In this document: piece by piece, positions 6,330 through 17,507 of the stretch
How the letters are laid out: each line of letters begins with the position of its first letter
Position numbering within the stretch: position 1 is the stretch's first letter
Source: Marinobacter alexandrii
GTDB lineage: Bacteria; Bacteroidota; Bacteroidia; Cytophagales; Cyclobacteriaceae
Assembly (NCBI GenBank): GCA_039984955.1
Contig: JBDWTN010000008.1
Location: 23,506 to 87,505, forward strand
Length of the DNA stretch: 64,000 nt
Direction: 5' to 3'
Made by a program: the position numbers and the translations under genes
The notes under the pieces: generated by a model
What the model was told of the DNA's origin: nothing
What the model saw: the letters and a program-made list of their open reading frames with translations, nothing else
Databases searched by the model: none

Positions 6330-9191
6330 ATGAAAACGCTTTTCACATTTATTGCCATGTTTATTTTTTCGACCTGTTTCAGTCAAATCCCATCCTTGAC
6401 AATTGGAAATGATGATAAAAAACGGGAACTGGAGATATCAAGCCTGGATGTGAATGTTGAAATCATTGGAAATATTGCGACTACTACTTATGATATTATT
6501 TTTTTCAATCCCCAAAGCAGGGATTTGGAAGGTGAGTTATCTCTTCCTCTAGGTGAGGGGCAGGAGATATGTAGATATGCGTTGAGCGTTAATGGTAAGC
6601 TCAGAGAAGGGGTAGTCATTGAAAAAGTGAAGGCAAGACAAGCTTTTGAAGCAGTCACGAGGCAAAACATTGATCCGGGTATTATCAATATCACGAAAGG
6701 AAATTTCTTTAAGACCAGAATTTATCCGATCTCATCAAAAGGAAATAAACGGGTAGTATTGGCTATTTCGGAAACATTAAGCGGAGATAAGAACAACCTG
6801 TACTACTCATTACCAATAGAAACGTCTAAAAGCATTGGTGAATTTAACCTGAATGTAAAGGCTATTAAGAGTCGAAAAACTGATAAGGCCATTTTGAGTG
6901 AATTCGAAAACATTCAATTTGATGACGCAAATGATGCGTTTGTTTTATCTCTTTCTAGAAAGAATTTTTCTTCATCTAATCCAATCAAATTTACTTTACC
7001 AAGATTTGGTGGAAGCGATCATCAATTATTCACGCATGAGTTTGAAGGGGAGACCTACTTTTATTTAAATATTAAGCCACCTACTCTTTCAGCTACCAAT
7101 CAAAAAAAATCAGAGAAGGTCGGAATCTTTTGGGATAATTCATCTTCAGGAGCCAAGCGTGACATTGAAAAAGAGTTGAAGTTGCTCGAGAGTTACCTGA
7201 ACTCATTGACGGACGTAAAAGAGATATCGGTGACCTCCTTTAATGCGGTAATGAACGAAAGTGAAAACTTTGGAGGAAGCATTCCATCAGTCATTTCATG
7301 TATTCGTGAGCTTACGTATGATGGAGCTACCCGATTTGATCAAATCAATCTTCATGGAAAGTATGATGAGATACTTTTGTTTTCTGATGGTATCAATACA
7401 ATTGGAACTGAGGATATTAGGATGCCTAAAAATGTAGTTCATACAATTACTTCCAGCTCAGGGAGTAATTACAGTCTACTCAAAAAGTTGGCAAGAAAGA
7501 CCAATGGTGAGTTTATCAACCTCCATAAAACCTCTACCAAAGACGCACTTAACATATTGCAAAAGGATGAAGAAAAATTCTTATCAAGTAGTTACTCAAA
7601 TGCGGATTTCAAAGAAGTATATCCTAATCTTCCCCAAAGAGTTGGTGAGTATTTTGAAATTGCTGGCATTCTAAAGACTGAAAAAGCAAGGATAAAAATT
7701 AACTATGGAGATAGGAATAATGTAACTAAAAGTCAAAGCTTCGAAATAGAAAAAAAATCAACAGCCCCAATTTCCCGATTATGGGCAAGTAAAAAAATAG
7801 AGACTTTAAATATTGACTACCAAAGGAATAAAGAAGCAATATTCACACTAGCCCAAAAACACAACATCGTCACAAAGAATAGCTCCTTTATTGTTTTGGA
7901 CAGAGTCGAGGATTATGCGGAGTACGAAATAGAACCACCGATTGAATTAAAGAAAGAATATGATCGATTAATTGCCCAGAAAGAAATATCCAAACCCGAT
8001 CCCAAAGCGATTTTTCAGAGAAATTTTGAAAGATTTAGTTCATTAAAAAATTGGTATGCTTCACCTCCTATTATATCACAGGAAGACAAGGATCAAGTAG
8101 ATGATTCTAGTGCTGTCTCAAGATCCCTCCAAGGAACTGTAGCAGGCGTTGAAGTCGAGTCAGCTGATGAGGAAGCATACATTATATTAGAAGAGGCTCC
8201 CGAAGAAGAGGCTTTACAGGAAGTGGTTGTCACCGGTTATAGCGCAACAAGTCGAGCGAAATCTTCTGTTGAATCTACATCTGGCGGCTCTTCTATTAAG
8301 GTGCTGGCTTGGCTTCCAGATGCACCCTATATGGAAGAGTTAAGAGGTGCTGCAGAAAACCATGAGAAACTTTATTTTAAACTGAAAGAGGAAAACAGCA
8401 CACGACCAGCATTTTTTATTCAGGTTTCAGATTTCTTTTTTGACAAAGGCATGAATAAGATAGCCGTTCGAATTCTTTCTAATGCGATAGAATTGGATCT
8501 GGAAAATCCAGAACTTATAAGGGCGGTAGCTAAGCGCCTCCTAGATGAGGATGAAATTGAAATGAGTGTTTCACTATTTCTGGAAATAAAGGAACTACGA
8601 CCAGAAGAACCTCAATCGTATCGAGATCTTGCTTTGGCATACATTGAGAACAAACAATATCAACAAGCGCTTGAGCTTTTTAACTATGTGCTGAATAAAG
8701 ATTGGGCTCGATTCGCAGATATTAAGGATGTTGTCCTTAATGAATTGAATAATTTGATTTCCTTGTACAAAGATGAACTCGATCTTTCTTCTGTAAGCAA
8801 GGAACTAATCGAGCCAATGCCATTGGATGTTCGAATAGTAATCGACTGGAGTAGTAATGATAGTGACATTGATTTGTGGGTCATCGATCCCAATGGAGAA
8901 AAGTGCTTCTATAGCCATCCAAACACAAAAATAGGAGGTAAAATAAGCAGGGACTTTACTGAGGGCTATGGTCCTGAGGAATACTCACTAAAAGAAGCTA
9001 AGAGAGGTTTCTATACTGTTTATGTCAATTATTATAGCGAGTCTCGACAAACCATTACAGGCCCTGTTACGATATACGGGACGCTCACAACGAATTATGG
9101 TACATCAAAACAAGAGACTAAACGAATTGCGGTCCAACTGACAGACAATAAGGAGTCAAGGCAAATCGCCCAACTGGAGTTTAGGGAGTAA
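6330..9191 (+). CDS. secreted VIT + vWA domain protein with TPR-like region and DUF2135-like C-terminal domain
   Basis: Signal peptide MKTLFTFIAMFIFSTCFSQ, then an N-terminal VIT-like region. A central vWA-like block follows (VGIFWDNSSSG ... LLFSDGINT). Helical TPR-like repeats occur at YRDLALAYIENKQYQQALELF. The C-terminal block IVIDWSSNDSDIDLWVIDPNGEKCFYSH...GYGPEEY is typical of DUF2135. Confidence 0.75.
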   Translation: MKTLFTFIAMFIFSTCFSQIPSLTIGNDDKKRELEISSLDVNVEIIGNIATTTYDIIFFNPQSRDLEGELSLPLGEGQEICRYALSVNGKLREGVVIEKVKARQAFEAVTRQNIDPGIINITKGNFFKTRIYPISSKGNKRVVLAISETLSGDKNNLYYSLPIETSKSIGEFNLNVKAIKSRKTDKAILSEFENIQFDDANDAFVLSLSRKNFSSSNPIKFTLPRFGGSDHQLFTHEFEGETYFYLNIKPPTLSATNQKKSEKVGIFWDNSSSGAKRDIEKELKLLESYLNSLTDVKEISVTSFNAVMNESENFGGSIPSVISCIRELTYDGATRFDQINLHGKYDEILLFSDGINTIGTEDIRMPKNVVHTITSSSGSNYSLLKKLARKTNGEFINLHKTSTKDALNILQKDEEKFLSSSYSNADFKEVYPNLPQRVGEYFEIAGILKTEKARIKINYGDRNNVTKSQSFEIEKKSTAPISRLWASKKIETLNIDYQRNKEAIFTLAQKHNIVTKNSSFIVLDRVEDYAEYEIEPPIELKKEYDRLIAQKEISKPDPKAIFQRNFERFSSLKNWYASPPIISQEDKDQVDDSSAVSRSLQGTVAGVEVESADEEAYIILEEAPEEEALQEVVVTGYSATSRAKSSVESTSGGSSIKVLAWLPDAPYMEELRGAAENHEKLYFKLKEENSTRPAFFIQVSDFFFDKGMNKIAVRILSNAIELDLENPELIRAVAKRLLDEDEIEMSVSLFLEIKELRPEEPQSYRDLALAYIENKQYQQALELFNYVLNKDWARFADIKDVVLNELNNLISLYKDELDLSSVSKELIEPMPLDVRIVIDWSSNDSDIDLWVIDPNGEKCFYSHPNTKIGGKISRDFTEGYGPEEYSLKEAKRGFYTVYVNYYSESRQTITGPVTIYGTLTTNYGTSKQETKRIAVQLTDNKESRQIAQLEFRE

Positions 9192-10596: not shown

Positions 10597-10720
10597 TGAT
10601 TTTCTTTATTCTTGGGACTTATTTCTTAAAACTAGTCACAGTTTATGAGTAAATTTTGTGACTTAATTTAAAAAATAAGGTCTTGAAGGTCGAAAAAACC
10701 TAAGTAATCCCGATCACTAT

Positions 10721-13700
10721 ATGGCAAAAGTTAAAAAGTTTGGAACTTTTGGTGGCGTCTTCGTCCCTTCAATATTGACTATTCTCGGTGTGATCATGTA
10801 CTTGAGGCTTCCTCAAATAGTAGGAGAGGCGGGATTATGGTATACACTAGGGATCATTGTAGTAGCGCATATCATTTCAGTGACCACAGGTCTCAGTATC
10901 TCCTCAATGGCGACCGATAAAAAAGTGGAAGCTGGAGGGCCTTACTACATCATCTCTCGAAGTTTAGGATTACCTATTGGAGGTACGTTAGGGCTTGCAC
11001 TTTTTGTGGGACTATCATTTAGCATAAGTCTATATTTAATTGGTTTTTCTGAAAGTTTTCTACCCTATTTTGGGTTTTCATCGGACATATCAAATATACG
11101 GATTGCTGGATCGTTGGCACTAATTGTACTAACCATAATTACTTTCATAAGCACGTCCCTTGCTATCAAAGCACAGTTCTTTATTTTGATAGCTATAGTT
11201 CTGTCTTTAATTTCTATTCTTTATGGACAGCACGAGTTCACTACAGAAAGTCCACTTTTTTATAGTTCTCCAAACGCTACTTCACTTATGGTGTTGTTTG
11301 GCATTTTCTTTCCTGCAGTAACTGGATTTAGTGCGGGAGTTAGCATGTCGGGCGACTTGGAAGACCCTAAAAGATCCATTCCCAAAGGAACAATTGCAGC
11401 CATCACTACGGGCTTCATTATTTATGTCGCTCTAGCCATATTCTTTTCGTTCACCGTAAGTAGAGAGGCACTGACCAATGATTCGCAGATACTTCTCAAC
11501 ACTGCATGGATACCTGAATTGGTCGTGGCGGGGATTTGGGGAGCTACACTTTCATCAGCATTGGGAAGTATTCTGGGTGCACCCAGAATTATGCAGGCTA
11601 TTGCAGTTGATAAAATCGGGTCAAAATTTTTCGCAAAAGGCCATGGACCAACCAAAGAACCTAGAAATGCTGTCTTGCTGGCATTCGTGATTGCAGAGGC
11701 AGGCATTCTCATCGGGGAACTTGATATTATTGCTCGAATTGTCTCCATCTTCTTCATAACAACTTATGGCTTTCTAAACATAAGCGCAGCATTTGAGAAA
11801 TGGACAAGCACTGACTATCGACCTGATTTCAAGGTTTCTGGGTGGGTTAGTTTGATAGGAGCAATTGCTTGCTTAGTGGTCATGATCCAGCTAGACTTGT
11901 TAGCACTACTTGGTGCTGTTTTAATCTTGGGTTTGACATACTTCCTTCTAAAAAAACGTGAACTCACTTTAGACTCTGGAGATGCGTGGAGTGGTGTTTG
12001 GGCCTCAGTGGTTAAAACAGGCTTAACCAATCTGATGAAACATAGTGTCAACAATCGAAACTGGAGGCCAAACGTGATCATGTTTAGCGGTAATCCAAAT
12101 AATCGTATTCACATGATAGAAATTGGGAAGGCAATTGTAGGCAAACTTGGAATTCTTACCGCTTTTGAACTAGTGAAAAGCGATGATCGCATTATGGCTA
12201 AGGCTGAGTCTGATCTTGAAAAAGGGAAAGACGCTATAGGATATTTTAAACACAAACTTCATTGCCGAGACATCTATTCAGGTATGGATCAGATTGCTCG
12301 TGTGTATGGCTTTTCCGGAGTAGAGCCAAATTCTATTTTGATGGGGTGGAGTAAGATTCCGACTAATGAAGATCGGTTTCTTGACTTGATCGAAAGTTTT
12401 GCTAGCCAAAATTTCAATACACTCTTTTTAAACTACGACCATGACAAAGGGTATGGAAACGGAAGCACCATTGATATCTGGTGGAGTGGTTCCGGACGAA
12501 ACCTATCACTTTCATTTGGCTTAGTAAGATCCATCACAAATTCTATCTTATGGAAAAGCGCGAAAGTAAGAGTGCTAATTATTAATCGGGCAGATGAAGA
12601 GTCAGAAACTATCTATAAAAATACGACAGCCATTCTGGATCGCTTTCGGTTACCTGCAGACGTGAAAATCATAGACAATGAAAAGGAGCAGTTAAGTGAC
12701 CTGGAAATCATATCCCGCGAATCAGAAAAAGCCGATCTTGTACTCCTGGGAGTGCCCGATCAGGAATTCAAAAACTTTGGAAAATCTTTCCATAAAATAA
12801 ATGAAATCGTTGAGAGTATTGGTAGCTCATTGATCATTAATGCATCGGAAGACTTTGAGGAACTGGAGGTAATAGATCAGCACAAACCTAAACTGGTTAC
12901 CAAATCAGGGGTACATTCATTGGCTATGCCGCCATTACCTGAATCAAATTATCAGGAGATAACCTCAGATATTTGGAAAATAGATCGAAATGGTCAGGAA
13001 GTTCTCGATCGATTTTACGTTCAAGCCTTCAAACCCATTTTTGATAGTAACCGCTCTTTCCTTGATGATCTTTCAAGTCGAATAGATTCTATTAAAAAAG
13101 AGGTTAAAAAAATTGAGGAAACACCAGAACTGCTCAAACGAAAGAAAGCCATAGATAAACTTAAAAATGAAAGCTTGTTTAAGCTGGATTTTTTTATCAA
13201 CGAAGAAGTCTCAGAGGTGAGTATCCCTTATCAGACAAAGCAATTGGAGGAAGGGATAAATTGGTATATCAATCAGTTTAAAGTGGATTTCAGAAGGTTT
13301 CCCAAATATTTTAAAATCAAGTATGCTGACAAAGACTTTGCCATCCATCAAGATGATAACTTGAGGATTAAGTCAATCAAAAGAGCGAAGAAATTTAAGC
13401 ACCTGATTGTTGGGAAGCCCATTACTCAGACTATTAATTATAGGGAGCTGGCAAGGTACTTTCAGTTAAGTACCAGAGTGATATTTCTAAAAAAACTACT
13501 TCAACAACTACTGAAGGATGAGACAAAATTTTACGAAAGTGCGCGAAAACTGATTGGCAACATTACAGATACGTTGAACAATATAGAAAGACAAATATGG
13601 GAAGAAGACAAGTTAGAATTACAAGAGATATTTCAACTTGAAATACTTATTAAGAAAACAAAAGAAGAACTTGAGTCACTAGCTTCACTCTATCAAAATA

Positions 13701-15766
13701 GATTGCTGGTCGAGTTTAGGAAGAACCTGATCCTGATGCAAAAAGATATGGAGCGGTTGGATACGGATCACCTAGTTCAAAAGAGGTCGAAAGCAAAAAA
13801 AAATTATGCCCGTAACGAAAACTTCCTAAAAGATTTTTCTGAGAGATTTGAAGTAAACGCCCACACAATAGTCAACTTATTGGTTCTTGAGTTAAAAGTC
13901 CATGCAATAAGGAATAGACAAGAAACTGAGATCATGGATTTCTGTGAAAACATGAAAATGGTTATTCACTCGCAATACGTGAAAAAAGCAGAAGTCATCT
14001 GCTCATCAATAACTCAAAATGATTCTGAAAAGGCTTTTAAGATAAAGTTGGATGTGGATTTCGAGACTGAGTTACAAGAGCAGTTTGAAGAGCATGAGGC
14101 AAAAATTATTTCCTTAATAGAGGAACTTCCAGAGAAAATTGAAATATTCTCGCTCTTACATAGTGATCACGAACCTGTTTCTATTCCGGTCTCAAGAATG
14201 GCCGAATACTATATTAAGTCCAGATATGAATCTCCCTCGGAAGAAAGATTTGAGCAATTAATGGATTCCCTTAAAAGAGCCATTTTAACCACACAAGACA
14301 CCATAAGCCTAGCTCAGTTTAACCTGGAAAATGAAGAACAGACAGTAAGCACAACCCAGGAGATTCTCGAAGGATGTAAAGCAAAAGTTGAAAAAGAGAA
14401 AAACAAATTCATTCAGCTTTTAGAAGATTTCCCAAGAGATAGTGAGAAACTACTCGAAAGTGCTTATGAACCTCTGGAGTCAATCCGAATTGAAGAAAGC
14501 GCAGAGGATTACACCAGCGGACTTAGGGTTTATCAAGGTCAGCAGGTCCTATCAGGTGTGGAGGCATTGTTAGAAAGAACCAAACAAGTCATTCGAAGAG
14601 CTATTACTAAATTGCTTTATAGACGTAGTGAAGCGACTTTATATGCAAGCAAGCTTGGAGGAAGTCAAAAACAAGCTTCTGCCAATAGTATGTTACTCGA
14701 TTTGAAAGAGCAGTTGAGTCCACCCATCAAAGGCATAGAGCCACTGCCTCAGTACTACACGAGCCTCTTCAATGGGAAGTCAAATATCAGTAAGGATCTT
14801 TGGATCAAACGTCCTATTGAAGAAGGTTTGTTTAAGAAGGCAGTGAAACGACACAGAGGTGGATATAGTGGTGGAATATTGGTATTAGGTGATCGCAACT
14901 CAGGTAAAACTGCTTTTGCTAAGCACGTAACACAACAAATATTTAAAAGCAGTAGTGTTTTTCACCTGTTTCCTCCTATTCCAGGCACGACTTCCATTGA
15001 AGGATTTGAAAAATCGCTTGCTAAAGCATTACAAAAAAGAGGCACATCACAGCAAATGCTCTCCAGAGTAGCCAAAAGCAGTATATTAATTATTCATGAT
15101 CTAGAGCTTTTCTGGGAGCGGTCTGAAGATGGATTGGAGGTAATCAACTTGATTGGAAAGCTGATAGATCAATTTGGAGACAAAGTGCTGTTTGTGGCTA
15201 ATATGAATGCGTATGCATACAAATTGATCAATGAACTTACAGCAGTGGAAGATCATTTCATTGAGATTATCAATATGGCACCTTTCGATGCAGAGGAGCT
15301 CGGTGAATTGGTACTTAAAAGACACAAGTCAAGCGGGCTGAAGATACATTTTGATGAAAAATCGGACCAGTTAAATGAGTTACAATTGGCTTCTCTTTTC
15401 CACAGTTATTTCAAGTACAGTCACGGAAGTCCTGGAGTAGCACTAAATGGTTGGTTATCTAATATTCATAAGGCAAACAAAGAATACATCTGTGTTCAAA
15501 AACCTGACTACCCTTCATTAGAGGTATTTGATAAATTAAGTGATGACTGGACCATGCTGATCATTCAGTTTGTACTGCACAAGCGACTTTCAATTCCAAA
15601 AATCATTCGGATTACGGAGTGGAGTGAAGGACAGGTAGTGGAAAAAATACTTGCAATGCAGAGATCAGGTTTAATCACAGAGAAAACAGGAGGCATTTAC
15701 AACCTCGATCCGGTGATGTATTCATTCATCCTTGATGCATTAAAAGAAAGAGAGGTGCTTCTATGA
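10721..15766 (+). CDS. fusion protein: SLC12/cation-chloride-cotransporter-like APC permease + coiled-coil region + P-loop (AAA+/STAND-like) ATPase + winged-helix tail
   Basis: Uninterrupted 1681-aa ORF. The N-terminus has FGTFGGVFVPSILTILGVIMYLRLPQIVGEAG and GGPYYIISRSLG, typical of CCC/SLC12 permeases. A cytosolic CCC-type C-domain runs to about aa 740. About 600 aa of E/K-rich helical sequence follows. Walker A is GDRNSGKT (nt 14888-14911) and the Walker B-like motif is ILIIHDLE (D at 15098). A lid-like APFDAEELGELVLKRH and a C-terminal wHTH-like IPKIIRITEWSEGQVVEKILAMQRSGLITE complete it. Confidence 0.8.
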   Translation: MAKVKKFGTFGGVFVPSILTILGVIMYLRLPQIVGEAGLWYTLGIIVVAHIISVTTGLSISSMATDKKVEAGGPYYIISRSLGLPIGGTLGLALFVGLSFSISLYLIGFSESFLPYFGFSSDISNIRIAGSLALIVLTIITFISTSLAIKAQFFILIAIVLSLISILYGQHEFTTESPLFYSSPNATSLMVLFGIFFPAVTGFSAGVSMSGDLEDPKRSIPKGTIAAITTGFIIYVALAIFFSFTVSREALTNDSQILLNTAWIPELVVAGIWGATLSSALGSILGAPRIMQAIAVDKIGSKFFAKGHGPTKEPRNAVLLAFVIAEAGILIGELDIIARIVSIFFITTYGFLNISAAFEKWTSTDYRPDFKVSGWVSLIGAIACLVVMIQLDLLALLGAVLILGLTYFLLKKRELTLDSGDAWSGVWASVVKTGLTNLMKHSVNNRNWRPNVIMFSGNPNNRIHMIEIGKAIVGKLGILTAFELVKSDDRIMAKAESDLEKGKDAIGYFKHKLHCRDIYSGMDQIARVYGFSGVEPNSILMGWSKIPTNEDRFLDLIESFASQNFNTLFLNYDHDKGYGNGSTIDIWWSGSGRNLSLSFGLVRSITNSILWKSAKVRVLIINRADEESETIYKNTTAILDRFRLPADVKIIDNEKEQLSDLEIISRESEKADLVLLGVPDQEFKNFGKSFHKINEIVESIGSSLIINASEDFEELEVIDQHKPKLVTKSGVHSLAMPPLPESNYQEITSDIWKIDRNGQEVLDRFYVQAFKPIFDSNRSFLDDLSSRIDSIKKEVKKIEETPELLKRKKAIDKLKNESLFKLDFFINEEVSEVSIPYQTKQLEEGINWYINQFKVDFRRFPKYFKIKYADKDFAIHQDDNLRIKSIKRAKKFKHLIVGKPITQTINYRELARYFQLSTRVIFLKKLLQQLLKDETKFYESARKLIGNITDTLNNIERQIWEEDKLELQEIFQLEILIKKTKEELESLASLYQNRLLVEFRKNLILMQKDMERLDTDHLVQKRSKAKKNYARNENFLKDFSERFEVNAHTIVNLLVLELKVHAIRNRQETEIMDFCENMKMVIHSQYVKKAEVICSSITQNDSEKAFKIKLDVDFETELQEQFEEHEAKIISLIEELPEKIEIFSLLHSDHEPVSIPVSRMAEYYIKSRYESPSEERFEQLMDSLKRAILTTQDTISLAQFNLENEEQTVSTTQEILEGCKAKVEKEKNKFIQLLEDFPRDSEKLLESAYEPLESIRIEESAEDYTSGLRVYQGQQVLSGVEALLERTKQVIRRAITKLLYRRSEATLYASKLGGSQKQASANSMLLDLKEQLSPPIKGIEPLPQYYTSLFNGKSNISKDLWIKRPIEEGLFKKAVKRHRGGYSGGILVLGDRNSGKTAFAKHVTQQIFKSSSVFHLFPPIPGTTSIEGFEKSLAKALQKRGTSQQMLSRVAKSSILIIHDLELFWERSEDGLEVINLIGKLIDQFGDKVLFVANMNAYAYKLINELTAVEDHFIEIINMAPFDAEELGELVLKRHKSSGLKIHFDEKSDQLNELQLASLFHSYFKYSHGSPGVALNGWLSNIHKANKEYICVQKPDYPSLEVFDKLSDDWTMLIIQFVLHKRLSIPKIIRITEWSEGQVVEKILAMQRSGLITEKTGGIYNLDPVMYSFILDALKEREVLL

Positions 15767-16154: not shown

Positions 16155-17507
16155 ATGATACAAGAAATAAAACCCTGGGAAATTCTCAAAGAGTATCTTG
16201 AGATAGAGTCAATAGATGAAATTAAAAAGTATCTGGATCTACTGGCCGCAGAAGATATTGTTGGTTTAGTCAGTCATCTTAGTGAGACACAAAGACTCAA
16301 ACTCTTATCCCTCCTGACACCAGAAGACGCAGCTGAACTGATAGAGGATTTACCTTGGGTTCAGGCAATAGAGCTCATCAAGGATATGAACAGCAAAGAA
16401 GCTGCTGCTATCATTGCGGAACTTCCAAGTGATGAGCAGGCCGACTTTTTAGGTGAAATGTCTGAGCAAGGAGCAGCGGCCATTATGCTGGAAATGCCTG
16501 AAAAAGAAGCTGAAAACATCCGAGAACTCATTCAATATGAAGATGATTCTGCTGGAGGACTGATGGTAACAGAATTCCTCTCTTTTGAGGAAGAGGTTAC
16601 TGTTGGAGAGGTAGTAAAAGACTTGCAATCCAATGCAGAGAAATATGAAAAATACCATCTGCAATACATTTATGTAACGCATAATAGGCAGTTTTCAGGT
16701 GTGCTAAATATGCGTGCATTGTTGCTATCCAAACCCACAGTGGAGCTCTCTGAGATTGTACTGAGAAATGCCTTGACGGTACAAGACAAAGACTCACTGG
16801 AAGACCTGATTAAGTTTTTTGATACCAATGATTTCTATGGTGTACCAGTTGTAGACGATCGATTACAATTGAAAGGAGTCGTGCTTAGAAAAGATCTAAG
16901 AGAGGCTCAAACCGAACAAGTGAATGTGGAGCACCTGGAGACTCAAGGTATTGTCGGCGGGGAAGAGCTTAGGACTATGTCGGTATGGTTGCGGGCAAGA
17001 AGAAGACTTTCCTGGTTGAGTGTAAACATCCTACTCAATATCGCTGCAGCAAGCATAATAGCAGTTTATCAAGATACTCTCTCAGCAGTAATTGCCCTTG
17101 CCGTTTTCTTACCTATCATTTCAGATATGAGTGGTTGTTCAGGTAATCAGGCTGTTGCTGTGAGTCTAAGAGAGCTTTCGCTTGGTGTCGTCCGCCCTTA
17201 CGAGGTAACCAGAGTATGGATACAAGAAATATCCGTAGGACTTTTGAATGGTCTTGTGTTAGGAACACTTATTGGAGTGGCTGCATGGCTATGGCAAGGG
17301 AATATTTATCTTGGATTAGTAGTAGGTGGCGCGCTTTCGATCAATACACTAGTAGCTGTATCTCTAGGGGGCACTATTCCACTTATATTAAAAAGAATGA
17401 ATGTAGATCCTGCATTAGCTTCAGGACCTATTTTGACAACAGTGACGGATATGTTCGGCTTCTTTTTAGCATTGACCTTTGCCGGAATGATGATAGGAAA
17501 TTTGTAA
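16155..17507 (+). CDS. mgtE: magnesium transporter MgtE
   Basis: Acidic helical N-domain, then a tandem CBS region (GGLMVTEF..., FYGVPVVDD...). The C-terminal 5-TM channel domain carries LPIISDMSGCSGNQ and GPILTTVTDMFGFF. Confidence 0.9.
   Translation: MIQEIKPWEILKEYLEIESIDEIKKYLDLLAAEDIVGLVSHLSETQRLKLLSLLTPEDAAELIEDLPWVQAIELIKDMNSKEAAAIIAELPSDEQADFLGEMSEQGAAAIMLEMPEKEAENIRELIQYEDDSAGGLMVTEFLSFEEEVTVGEVVKDLQSNAEKYEKYHLQYIYVTHNRQFSGVLNMRALLLSKPTVELSEIVLRNALTVQDKDSLEDLIKFFDTNDFYGVPVVDDRLQLKGVVLRKDLREAQTEQVNVEHLETQGIVGGEELRTMSVWLRARRRLSWLSVNILLNIAAASIIAVYQDTLSAVIALAVFLPIISDMSGCSGNQAVAVSLRELSLGVVRPYEVTRVWIQEISVGLLNGLVLGTLIGVAAWLWQGNIYLGLVVGGALSINTLVAVSLGGTIPLILKRMNVDPALASGPILTTVTDMFGFFLALTFAGMMIGNL

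Follow-up and report, generated by a model that had tools for sequence, protein, structure and literature searches.

In animals, control of cell volume and of chloride depends centrally on the cation-chloride cotransporters (CCCs, the SLC12 family), which are also important drug targets; very little work has been done on their prokaryotic relatives. The side-chain ion ligands of human NKCC1 are the hydroxyls of S613 and S614 for Na+, Y383 and T499 for K+, and Y686 for the second Cl-, with backbone ion contacts at L297-M303, P496 and G500-L502 (PMC7889885). The two Na+-site serines are substituted in the KCCs, which need no Na+ (PMC8461084), and the K+-site tyrosine is absent from NCC, which carries no K+ (PMC7889885). 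The cytosolic C-terminal domains (C-domains) of KCC1 and NKCC1 bind ATP/ADP in a USP-like pocket (PMC8280820), and a crystal structure of the C-domain of the Methanosarcina acetivorans CCC (MaCCC) was described by Warmuth et al. 2009, as cited in PMC4301019. Here, we describe a gene in a 64-kb stretch of DNA (64,000 nucleotides of contig JBDWTN010000008.1, hereafter the window) in which an SLC12-type transporter and its C-domain are joined, within one open reading frame (ORF) of 1681 residues, to a helical region, an AAA+ ATPase module and a C-terminal winged-helix (WH) domain. To our knowledge, prokaryotic CCC homologues such as MaCCC end after the C-domain. A literature search found no paper describing a CCC-AAA+ fusion family, and searches on CCCs fused to an ATPase in bacteria, or on the function of bacterial CCCs, returned nothing relevant except the MaCCC C-domain structure.

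One reading frame for a cotransporter and an ATPase module

The ORF runs without interruption from ATG to stop, as an earlier note on this DNA, made from the sequence and its translation, had described. The motifs quoted in that note were all located in the translation (GDRNSGKT at residues 1390-1397, ILIIHDLE at residues 1455-1462, APFDAEELGELVLKRH, SHGSPGV and a C-terminal segment), and the order of domains that had been read by eye, a CCC with its C-domain followed by a helical region, a P-loop ATPase and a winged helix, was borne out by the searches reported below. The domain boundary placed at residue 740 was also correct, as relatives consisting of the tail only start at window residues ~735-740. 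It was too strong to take CCCs as unconnected with nucleotides, since the C-domains of KCC1 and NKCC1 bind ATP/ADP (PMC8280820) and such a link therefore has a precedent. NCBI lists a protein with 100% identity to that of the window as 'hypothetical protein [Ekhidna sp.]' (P0170), Ekhidna belonging to the Bacteroidota, Cytophagales, Reichenbachiellaceae, and three chromosome loci in Ekhidna metagenome-assembled genomes (MAGs) carry ORFs of 1681-1683 residues in a scan of one genome per species.

Judged by sequence, residues 1-735 are a member of the CCC family, with the 12-transmembrane (TM) core, the cytosolic C-domain and the ion-coordinating residues all present. Pfam AA_permease (PF00324) matched residues 12-421 (E 1.7e-42), the TIGR00930 K-Cl cotransporter model matched residues 2-550 (E 2e-107, at 360 bits, far under the model cut-off of 953), and the Pfam SLC12 C-domain family PF03522 matched residues 461-740 (E 1.5e-6, 27.9 bits vs a cut-off of 27). 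Sequence searches of the PDB returned human NKCC1 at E ~1e-76, with NKCC1, KCC1-4 and NCC spanning E 1e-63 to 1e-76, and these alignments ran into the C-domain (KCC), up to query residue 659. The NKCC1 ligands Y383, T499, S613, S614 and Y686 align with window residues Y105, T201, S278, S279 and Y349, and all five side-chain ligands are kept in 209-211 of the 211 full-length family members, while the backbone contact positions correspond to window L19-I25, P198 and G202-S204. Because the serines and the tyrosine are kept, unlike in the KCCs and NCC, the ion-site pattern appears NKCC-like, and from this homology we infer the ion selectivity. The transporter core as a whole is very conserved, with a median identity of 68% to the window protein among the same 211 members.

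The region between the C-domain and the ATPase, residues ~741-1330, had been read as an E/K-rich helical coiled coil. Its helical character and its charge (34% of residues) stood up to analysis, but a simple coiled coil did not. In the AlphaFold2 (AF2) model of residues 741-1345 (predicted local distance difference test, pLDDT, 86.5; predicted template modelling score, pTM, 0.74; 76-sequence alignment) the chain forms a helix bundle, with helices 45-73 residues long and two small beta elements (hairpins). When the two halves were compared with hhalign, ~744-998 aligned with ~1029-1260 over 232 columns at a probability of 94.7% (E 6e-8), indicating that the helical middle is a tandem duplication of a ~250-residue module. 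No Pfam family matched this region, and a Foldseek search of its model against the PDB found no structural relative (best E 0.65, TM-score at most 0.19); ABC-transporter helices, vinculin and designed bundles, returned at this level, were treated as noise. It is the most variable part of the protein, with a median identity of 24% to the window protein, and scattered near-invariant residues are kept. A simple coiled-coil spacer is ruled out by the pTM, the two homologous repeats, the conserved non-heptad motifs and a ratio of nonsynonymous to synonymous substitution rates (dN/dS) of 0.10. Confidently modelled and without a PDB relative by Foldseek, the ~600-residue duplicated region may represent a new domain family.

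The AF2 model of the C-terminal part has a base with the strand-helix order of AAA+ proteins, followed by a helical lid and a winged helix. Its best Foldseek matches were Pyrobaculum Cdc6 (1fnn, 3e-9), ORC4, Aeropyrum ORC1 and Sulfolobus Cdc6/Orc1; these Cdc6/Orc1/ORC4 entries (1fnn, 2v1u, 2qby, 7jk6_D) scored E 3e-9 to 4e-7 at probability 1.0, and the Cdc6/Orc1 alignments of 390-440 columns took in base, lid and WH together at a sequence identity of 11-15%. The next matches were CbbX, RFC, RuvB, TnsC, the STAND protein Avs5 and an archaeal Walker ATPase. Profile searches gave sub-threshold scores for the module (Pfam AAA_16 E 0.003 and AAA E 0.007; NCBIfam ORC1-type E 0.14) and weak matches on a family relative (ATPase_2, PF01637, E 0.024; nSTAND3, E 0.27). 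Searches of PDB sequences with the tail and with the ATPase-module profile gave chance-level P-loop matches only, and NCBIfam searches of the ATPase module and of the partner protein described below gave far sub-threshold matches only. The tail is, then, not a characterised domain known from elsewhere, in that Pfam, NCBIfam, PDB sequences and PADLOC all returned no match above threshold. The kind of P-loop ATPase that had been proposed (Cdc6/Orc1, archaeal ATPase or STAND) is upheld by the profile, AF2 and Foldseek results, and we call the module Cdc6/Orc1-like or STAND-like and file it in neither family.

The nucleotide-binding motifs are kept across the 211 homologues. Walker A reads G-[ED]-R-N-S-G-K-[TS], with G1395 in all 211 and K1396 in 200, and Walker B reads hhhh-[NH]-D-L-E-L-[WF]-W-E-R, with D1460 in 203 and E1462 in 202. 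At the end of strand beta-4, N1494 (179/211) and N1496 (184/211) are conserved, and in the lid R1534 (211), H1535 (208), G1569 (211), G1572 (208) and W1578 (211). Ten of the 211 members, P0053 and P0105 among them, have arginine in place of the Walker A lysine (GxxxSGRT); these may be lineages with altered or lost hydrolysis. No conserved arginine was found among the 211 members at residues 1497-1520, between beta-4 and beta-5, where the basic columns are mixed K/R/E/Q; we take this stretch to be the site of the AAA+ arginine finger (box VII). Likewise, a sensor-2 arginine of the G-D-A-R type was not found in the lid of these members, which has S-x-G-[NS]-P-G-x-A-L instead, and by motif similarity G1572 presumably occupies the expected place of the Cdc6/Orc1 sensor-2 arginine. 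With the Walker acids kept and no conserved arginine finger or sensor-2 arginine found, the module resembles the nucleotide-dependent switches of initiator and STAND proteins rather than a ring motor. In the WH domain, H1620 (203/211), K1621, R1622, K/R1627, R1630, R1648, G1650 and K1655 are conserved, with a conserved basic patch in helices H1/H2. The N-terminal half of helix 3 is acidic family-wide and the wing is short with one conserved basic residue; typical DNA reading through helix 3 is not supported by the residues present.

All regions of the fusion gene are under purifying selection. Between the window and its closest relative, L001, the pair from which the ratios were taken (dS ~1, more distant pairs being saturated), dN/dS was 0.028 in the TM core, 0.055 in the C-domain, 0.099 in the helical region, 0.034 in the AAA+ module and 0.119 in the WH domain, and 0.119 also in the small ORF downstream.

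A family with a downstream partner and free tails

The earlier note had dealt with a single fusion. Comparison brought out a large family in which the fusion is old and stable, an MscS-type partner encoded downstream, and free tail proteins with the same neighbours. An exhaustive HMMER search with the tail (residues 741-1681) over 1.84 billion cluster representatives (50% identity clusters) returned 1674 relatives at E <= 1e-3, and for 404 of these E was 1e-30 or lower. The best 150 are for the most part 1666-1830 residues long and 23-45% identical, and are matched from their residue ~740-800 through to the C-terminus. A word-index homologue search with the same whole tail gave no match, which is probably a limitation of the tool, with charged low-complexity words filling its candidate list, and not absence. 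With the full-length protein as query, at least 120 homologues were found that cover 98-100% of it at 41-88% identity; they come from Ekhidna, Reichenbachiella, Fulvivirga, Marivirga, Imperialibacter, Flexithrix, Roseivirga, Roseihalotalea, Cyclobacteriaceae, Flammeovirgaceae and Bacteroidales. Members are present in Myxococcota MAGs too, beside Bacteroidota, a range that rests on source-supplied names. In databases the fusion homologues are called 'amino acid permease', 'amino acid transporter' or 'hypothetical protein' only, and hundreds of entries are misnamed as 'amino acid permease'.

From 90 fetched loci and the window, 51 loci with a complete ORF were available, of which 47 encode the fusion (1641-1752 residues, median 1700) and 4 the tail only; ORF lengths from metagenomes are approximate, our own script having taken the first start codon after the upstream stop. 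A split or frameshift near residue 740, which the earlier note had raised as a possibility, was found in none of the 47 independent fused loci. Several members vary in other ways. P0105 (1827 residues) and P0114 (1801 residues) are ~100 residues longer than the others, the former through extra sequence inserted into the transporter core behind its third TM region, the latter through a charged, proline-rich, low-complexity insertion in the helical region. The Ekhidna MAG OZ253940 has two diverged cassettes (L002 at 2.56 Mb and L003 at 0.51 Mb) whose copies are 73-76% identical to the window protein, each comprising a divergent antiporter gene, the fusion gene and a small overlapping ORF; as both are whole three-gene cassettes, the three genes appear to have been duplicated as a unit. 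In the metagenome assembly ERZ25039505 (L004, L005) the family gene is cut into several overlapping gene calls, e.g., 1432 and 266 residues, and the pattern of these calls looks like frameshift errors of that assembly.

Positions of the fusion gene, its domains and its neighbours are collected in the table.

Table. Features of the fusion gene and its surroundings, in window coordinates
Feature	Position	Strand	Basis or remarks
Whole fusion gene, 1681 aa	10721..15766	+	single ATG-to-stop ORF: CCC transporter, two helical repeats, AAA+ module, winged helix
CCC/SLC12 transmembrane domain, APC/LeuT fold, aa 1-460	10721..12100	+	Pfam, TIGR00930, NKCC1 match
SLC12 cytosolic C-terminal domain, aa 461-735	12101..12925	+	Pfam PF03522, NKCC1/KCC alignments
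Helical repeat A, aa ~744-998	12950..13714	+	AF2 model, hhalign
Helical repeat B, aa ~1029-1260	13805..14500	+	AF2 model, hhalign
AAA+ alpha/beta base, aa ~1365-1520	14813..15280	+	Walker A 14888-14911, Walker B 15083-15106
AAA+ lid, aa ~1521-1580	15281..15460	+	R1534-H1535 and S-x-G-[NS]-P-G-x-A-L motif
C-terminal winged-helix domain, aa ~1601-1681	15521..15763	+	secondary structure H-b-H-H-b-b-H
Partner gene, 97 aa	15763..16056	+	start overlaps fusion stop codon by 4 nt
Cation/proton antiporter (CPA, Na_H_Exchanger family), 423 aa	9325..10596	-	Pfam PF00999 E 6e-21
Inverted repeat GTCAC-N18-GTGAC	10635..10662	.	59 bp upstream of fusion gene start, in the shared intergenic region
MgtE magnesium transporter	16155-17507	+	TIGR00400, 303 bits vs cut-off 232.75; after the small ORF
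953-aa protein: N-terminal VIT domain, TPR repeats, C-terminal DUF2135	6330-9191	+	just upstream of the antiporter gene

The partner protein of the window has no Pfam match, PF00924 included, and no membrane part. It aligns with the last ~80 residues of MscS-like proteins of 232-257 residues, with which it has an I-L-N-S-P-W motif in common, and its ORF is kept in both Ekhidna MAGs (in both paralogous cassettes of one) and in one more distant relative. At the same position, Flexithrix and a Bacteroidales MAG encode a 232-234-residue protein with a PF00924 MscS beta-domain (30-32 bits). Long-form partners score 22.7-31.9 bits with PF00924, whose cut-off is 20.2, and, by inspection, have hydrophobic helices at the N-terminus. 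Among the 81 loci having at least 750 nt downstream, the partner gene directly follows the family gene in 75, in 60 as the long form (230-257 residues) and in 15 as the short form (97-115 residues). Its start overlaps the fusion stop by 4 nt in 30 loci and, as read from this overlap, the two genes appear to be translationally coupled. A RecA match of the partner-alignment profile against PDB sequences was set aside as spurious and multi-copy, the profile having only 105 columns owing to the short forms. The fused members at L021, L023, L047, L055 and L070 have no detectable partner directly downstream, so the partner is not strictly universal; L021 and L023 are 1674-residue members close to Imperialibacter-named proteins, and at L055 an MscS-like gene lies 2.3 kb away from the fusion gene.

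Tail-only proteins of 952-986 residues, found in two lineages, contain the helical repeats, the AAA+ module and the WH domain and have no CCC part. They start in the linker just before a conserved P-x-L-x-x-S-x-Y...K-I-D-x-x-G motif (window residues ~737-760). No CCC gene adjoins the tail-only genes at these loci, and they keep an MscS-like gene directly downstream and a CPA gene alongside. That the tail also occurs free with the same neighbours indicates that it is more than a transporter appendage. The long, membrane-anchored partner is present at all 4 tail-only loci and the short, soluble one is seen only where the tail is fused to a CCC, a distribution that, in this small sample, fits a physical complex of tail and partner needing at least one membrane anchor. 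It gives indirect support to such a complex, in which the contact may be made by the C-terminal domain of the partner.

A CPA gene adjoins the family gene in 22 of 52 loci, and in 21 of these it is divergent and upstream at 76-377 bp, as in the window, where the antiporter also has a weak NCBIfam match to a K+/H+ antiporter. The inverted repeat between the two genes is the sole match to GTCAC-N18-GTGAC in the window, against 0.13 expected by chance. Counting the window, GTCAC-N17-20-GTGAC occurs in 7 loci, in each at the corresponding position ~60-90 bp before the start of the fusion gene (L001 5895-5922, L002 5888-5917, L011 4734-4760, L017/L018 5892-5920, L023 5944-5973), and is a candidate operator for some dimeric regulator. 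The remaining neighbours are not shared: MgtE was not found as a conserved neighbour of the family, and the VIT/TPR/DUF2135 protein is not kept beside it at the other loci inspected. At the MgtE position, L001 and L002 have a ~430-residue protein that by eye is not MgtE-like, with an apparent signal sequence.

Proposed function and its alternatives

The most likely function of these genes, to which we give somewhat better than even chances, is a nucleotide-switched module for ion and cell-volume homeostasis. No better inference has emerged than the functional reading put forward earlier, in which transport is coupled to a regulatory module that depends on nucleotides. The transporter would be a Na+-coupled, K+- and Cl--binding cotransporter of the NKCC type, and the AAA+ module would be a slow ATP/ADP conformational switch, like STAND or initiator-type ATPases. 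This switch would set transporter activity in cis, acting via the helical repeats on the CCC C-domain dimer, and would also dock the partner protein through the C-terminal domain of the partner. In most lineages the partner would be a mini-MscS-like channel, and in the lineage of the window a soluble C-terminal domain only, while the neighbouring CPA antiporter would recycle Na+ or K+. Together, the genes may serve marine and saline bacteria in taking up and releasing salt and in the homeostasis of cell volume. The ion-transporter neighbours (the CPA antiporter, the MscS-like protein and MgtE) count for this assignment to ion homeostasis.

Several observations weigh against it. Support for a function of the family comes from sequence and predicted structure, and the contact between tail and partner is a proposal from gene context. 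The AF2 model of the AAA+ module is moderately confident (pLDDT 78, pTM 0.71, from a 12-sequence alignment), its Foldseek TM-scores are 0.4-0.5, every AAA-family profile match falls under its curated threshold, and the absence of the arginine finger and sensor-2 arginine was judged by motif position and not by superposing structures. The ion selectivity is an extrapolation from the CCCs of eukaryotes, and one K+-site residue differs, NKCC1 N298 being T20 in the window protein; the contact of N298 with K+ is given as a backbone carbonyl (PMC7889885). The partner is missing in 6 of 81 loci and an adjoining antiporter in 30 of 52. Finally, the tail-only forms imply a role of the tail that is independent of the CCC, so calling it a 'regulator of the CCC' may understate that role.

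Should the switch control transport, this would be the first secondary transporter known to us to be regulated by a fused AAA+ module, it would offer a simple and genetically tractable model for signal transmission by the CCC C-domain, and the genes would constitute a new module of bacterial osmoregulation. What appears to be an NKCC-like transporter wired to an ATP-binding switch and a mechanosensitive-channel-like partner is carried by many bacteria of marine and sediment origin. More tentatively, and with considerable doubt on our side, the fusion, the MscS-like partner and the CPA antiporter may be one physical machine of an undescribed kind, in which the Cdc6/Orc1-like ATP switch would reciprocally control NKCC-type uptake and MscS-like release, and the duplicated helical domain might sense ionic strength or crowding. 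Such a machine would be a self-contained, kinase-free bacterial counterpart of eukaryotic cell-volume regulation.

Alternatively, the tail might organise or remodel a complex of the CCC, the MscS-like protein and the antiporter and have no direct effect on transport, or, in a variant of the same idea, control the assembly, localisation or turnover of the membrane complex. AAA+ proteins commonly assemble or remodel complexes, the tail-only proteins retain their MscS-like and antiporter neighbours without a CCC, and a large duplicated helical domain without a fold match could serve as an interaction platform. However, the lack of a conserved arginine finger makes a cooperative ring remodeller unlikely, and in 47 of 51 loci the tail is permanently and covalently attached to the CCC C-domain, which suggests that it acts in cis on the transporter. 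We therefore regard this alternative as unlikely.

It is less probable still that the protein is a membrane-tethered DNA-binding regulator, whose AAA+/WH part would bind DNA, for example the palindrome at its own promoter, and would so couple ion flux or the state of the transporter to transcription or chromosome anchoring. The closest structural matches of the module, WH domain included, are DNA-binding initiators, the winged helix has its conserved lysines and arginines from K1621 to K1655, and the palindrome lies upstream of the gene in 7 loci and is present only once in the 64 kb of the window. Yet helix 3, the usual recognition helix, carries its acidic residues at the N-terminal end and the short wing contributes a single conserved basic residue, while WH domains in STAND and AAA+ switches often act intramolecularly. 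The palindrome was, moreover, found only in the clade whose antiporter gene is divergent, and it could be the binding site of an ordinary transcription factor. The gene context of ion transporters and the MscS-like partner, which is nearly universal, point to a membrane function.

A role in defence, in which a STAND-like NTPase would sense invasion and the transporter and MscS-like protein would act as effectors collapsing ion gradients, is very improbable. What speaks for it are the weak AAA_16 and very weak nSTAND3 matches, the G-x-P-type motif and the conserved His of the WH domain, the STAND defence protein Avs5 among the Foldseek matches, and a weak match to an NCBIfam anti-phage ATPase model (E 1e-4, 20 bits vs a cut-off of 790). 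PADLOC, however, gave no match at E <= 0.01 for the fusion, the tail, the partner or the antiporter, there are no C-terminal sensor repeats, and synteny with housekeeping and ion-transport genes is stable over deep divergence. The conserved core (68% median identity, dN/dS 0.03) and the intact ion sites are also unlike patchy, fast-evolving defence genes. Last, an artefact in which two genes were joined by a missed stop or frameshift is already refuted by the comparative data. The gene is in pieces in one metagenome assembly (ERZ25039505), but those breaks fall inside otherwise collinear homologues, the 47 independent intact fusions include chromosome-level MAG assemblies, and purifying selection continues over the junction, which together rule out a frameshift or chimeric origin.

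Comparison with known systems

The ATPase module is like Cdc6/Orc1 and the ORC initiators in its fold of AAA+ base, lid and WH (from Foldseek on the AF2 model) and in having Walker A and B. It is unlike them in its low sequence identity (11-15%), in matching no profile at threshold, in lacking a conserved arginine finger and sensor-2 arginine, in its acidic WH helix 3, and in being fused to a membrane transporter with nothing linking it to replication. It also resembles the STAND/AAA_16/PF01637 switches (Apaf-1, MalT, NLRs, Avs), having a P-loop, an acidic Walker B with aromatics after it (DLELWW), a lid motif reminiscent of G-x-P (GNPG), no conserved arginine finger and an effector domain on its N-terminal side; its conserved WH histidine (H1620) is, by sequence, a candidate counterpart of the MHD/LHD histidine. 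Unlike STAND proteins, it has no C-terminal repeat sensor (LRR, WD40, TPR), the window protein ending ~80 residues after the lid, with the WH domain; its Pfam matches are weak and under cut-off, and its context is not one of defence (PADLOC; transport and housekeeping neighbours). The long-form partners resemble the MscS family in their hydrophobic N-terminal helices, TM3b/beta-domain and C-terminal domain, but they are only 230-257 residues long, their presumed pore-helix region is, by inspection, not Gly/Ala-rich, and the window partner is a 97-residue C-terminal domain alone.

The transporter part follows the plan of MaCCC, a core and then a compact C-domain of ~280 residues, which dimerises in MaCCC; unlike homologues of the MaCCC type, the fusion family extends ~940 residues further and has an operon partner. 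With NKCC1 (SLC12A2), KCC1-4 and NCC it shares the 12-TM core and the cytosolic C-domain, and its Na+, K+ and Cl- ligand side chains are identical to those of NKCC1. It differs from the eukaryotic CCCs in having no long N-terminal regulatory region, the TM core starting from residue ~6, and in its C-domain running into ~940 residues of repeats, AAA+ and WH, where the eukaryotic proteins have kinase-controlled termini. Its host is bacterial, and its TIGR00930 score of 360 is far under 953. By analogy with the eukaryotic CCCs, a role in salt and volume homeostasis is plausible.

Transporters with cytosolic regulatory parts include Trk/Ktr with ATP/ADP-binding RCK rings, OpuA with CBS domains, and BetP and ProP with helical C-termini. 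TeaABC has a USP subunit, TeaD (PMC8280820). None of these systems is known to use an AAA+/WH module or the helical repeat, and no homology to them was detected. A secondary transporter with an AAA+/WH module fused to it is not known to us, and a literature search found none. The fusion may nevertheless work as Trk/Ktr, OpuA, BetP, ProP and TeaABC do, with a sensor of nucleotide or ionic strength tuning a transporter in osmotic homeostasis.

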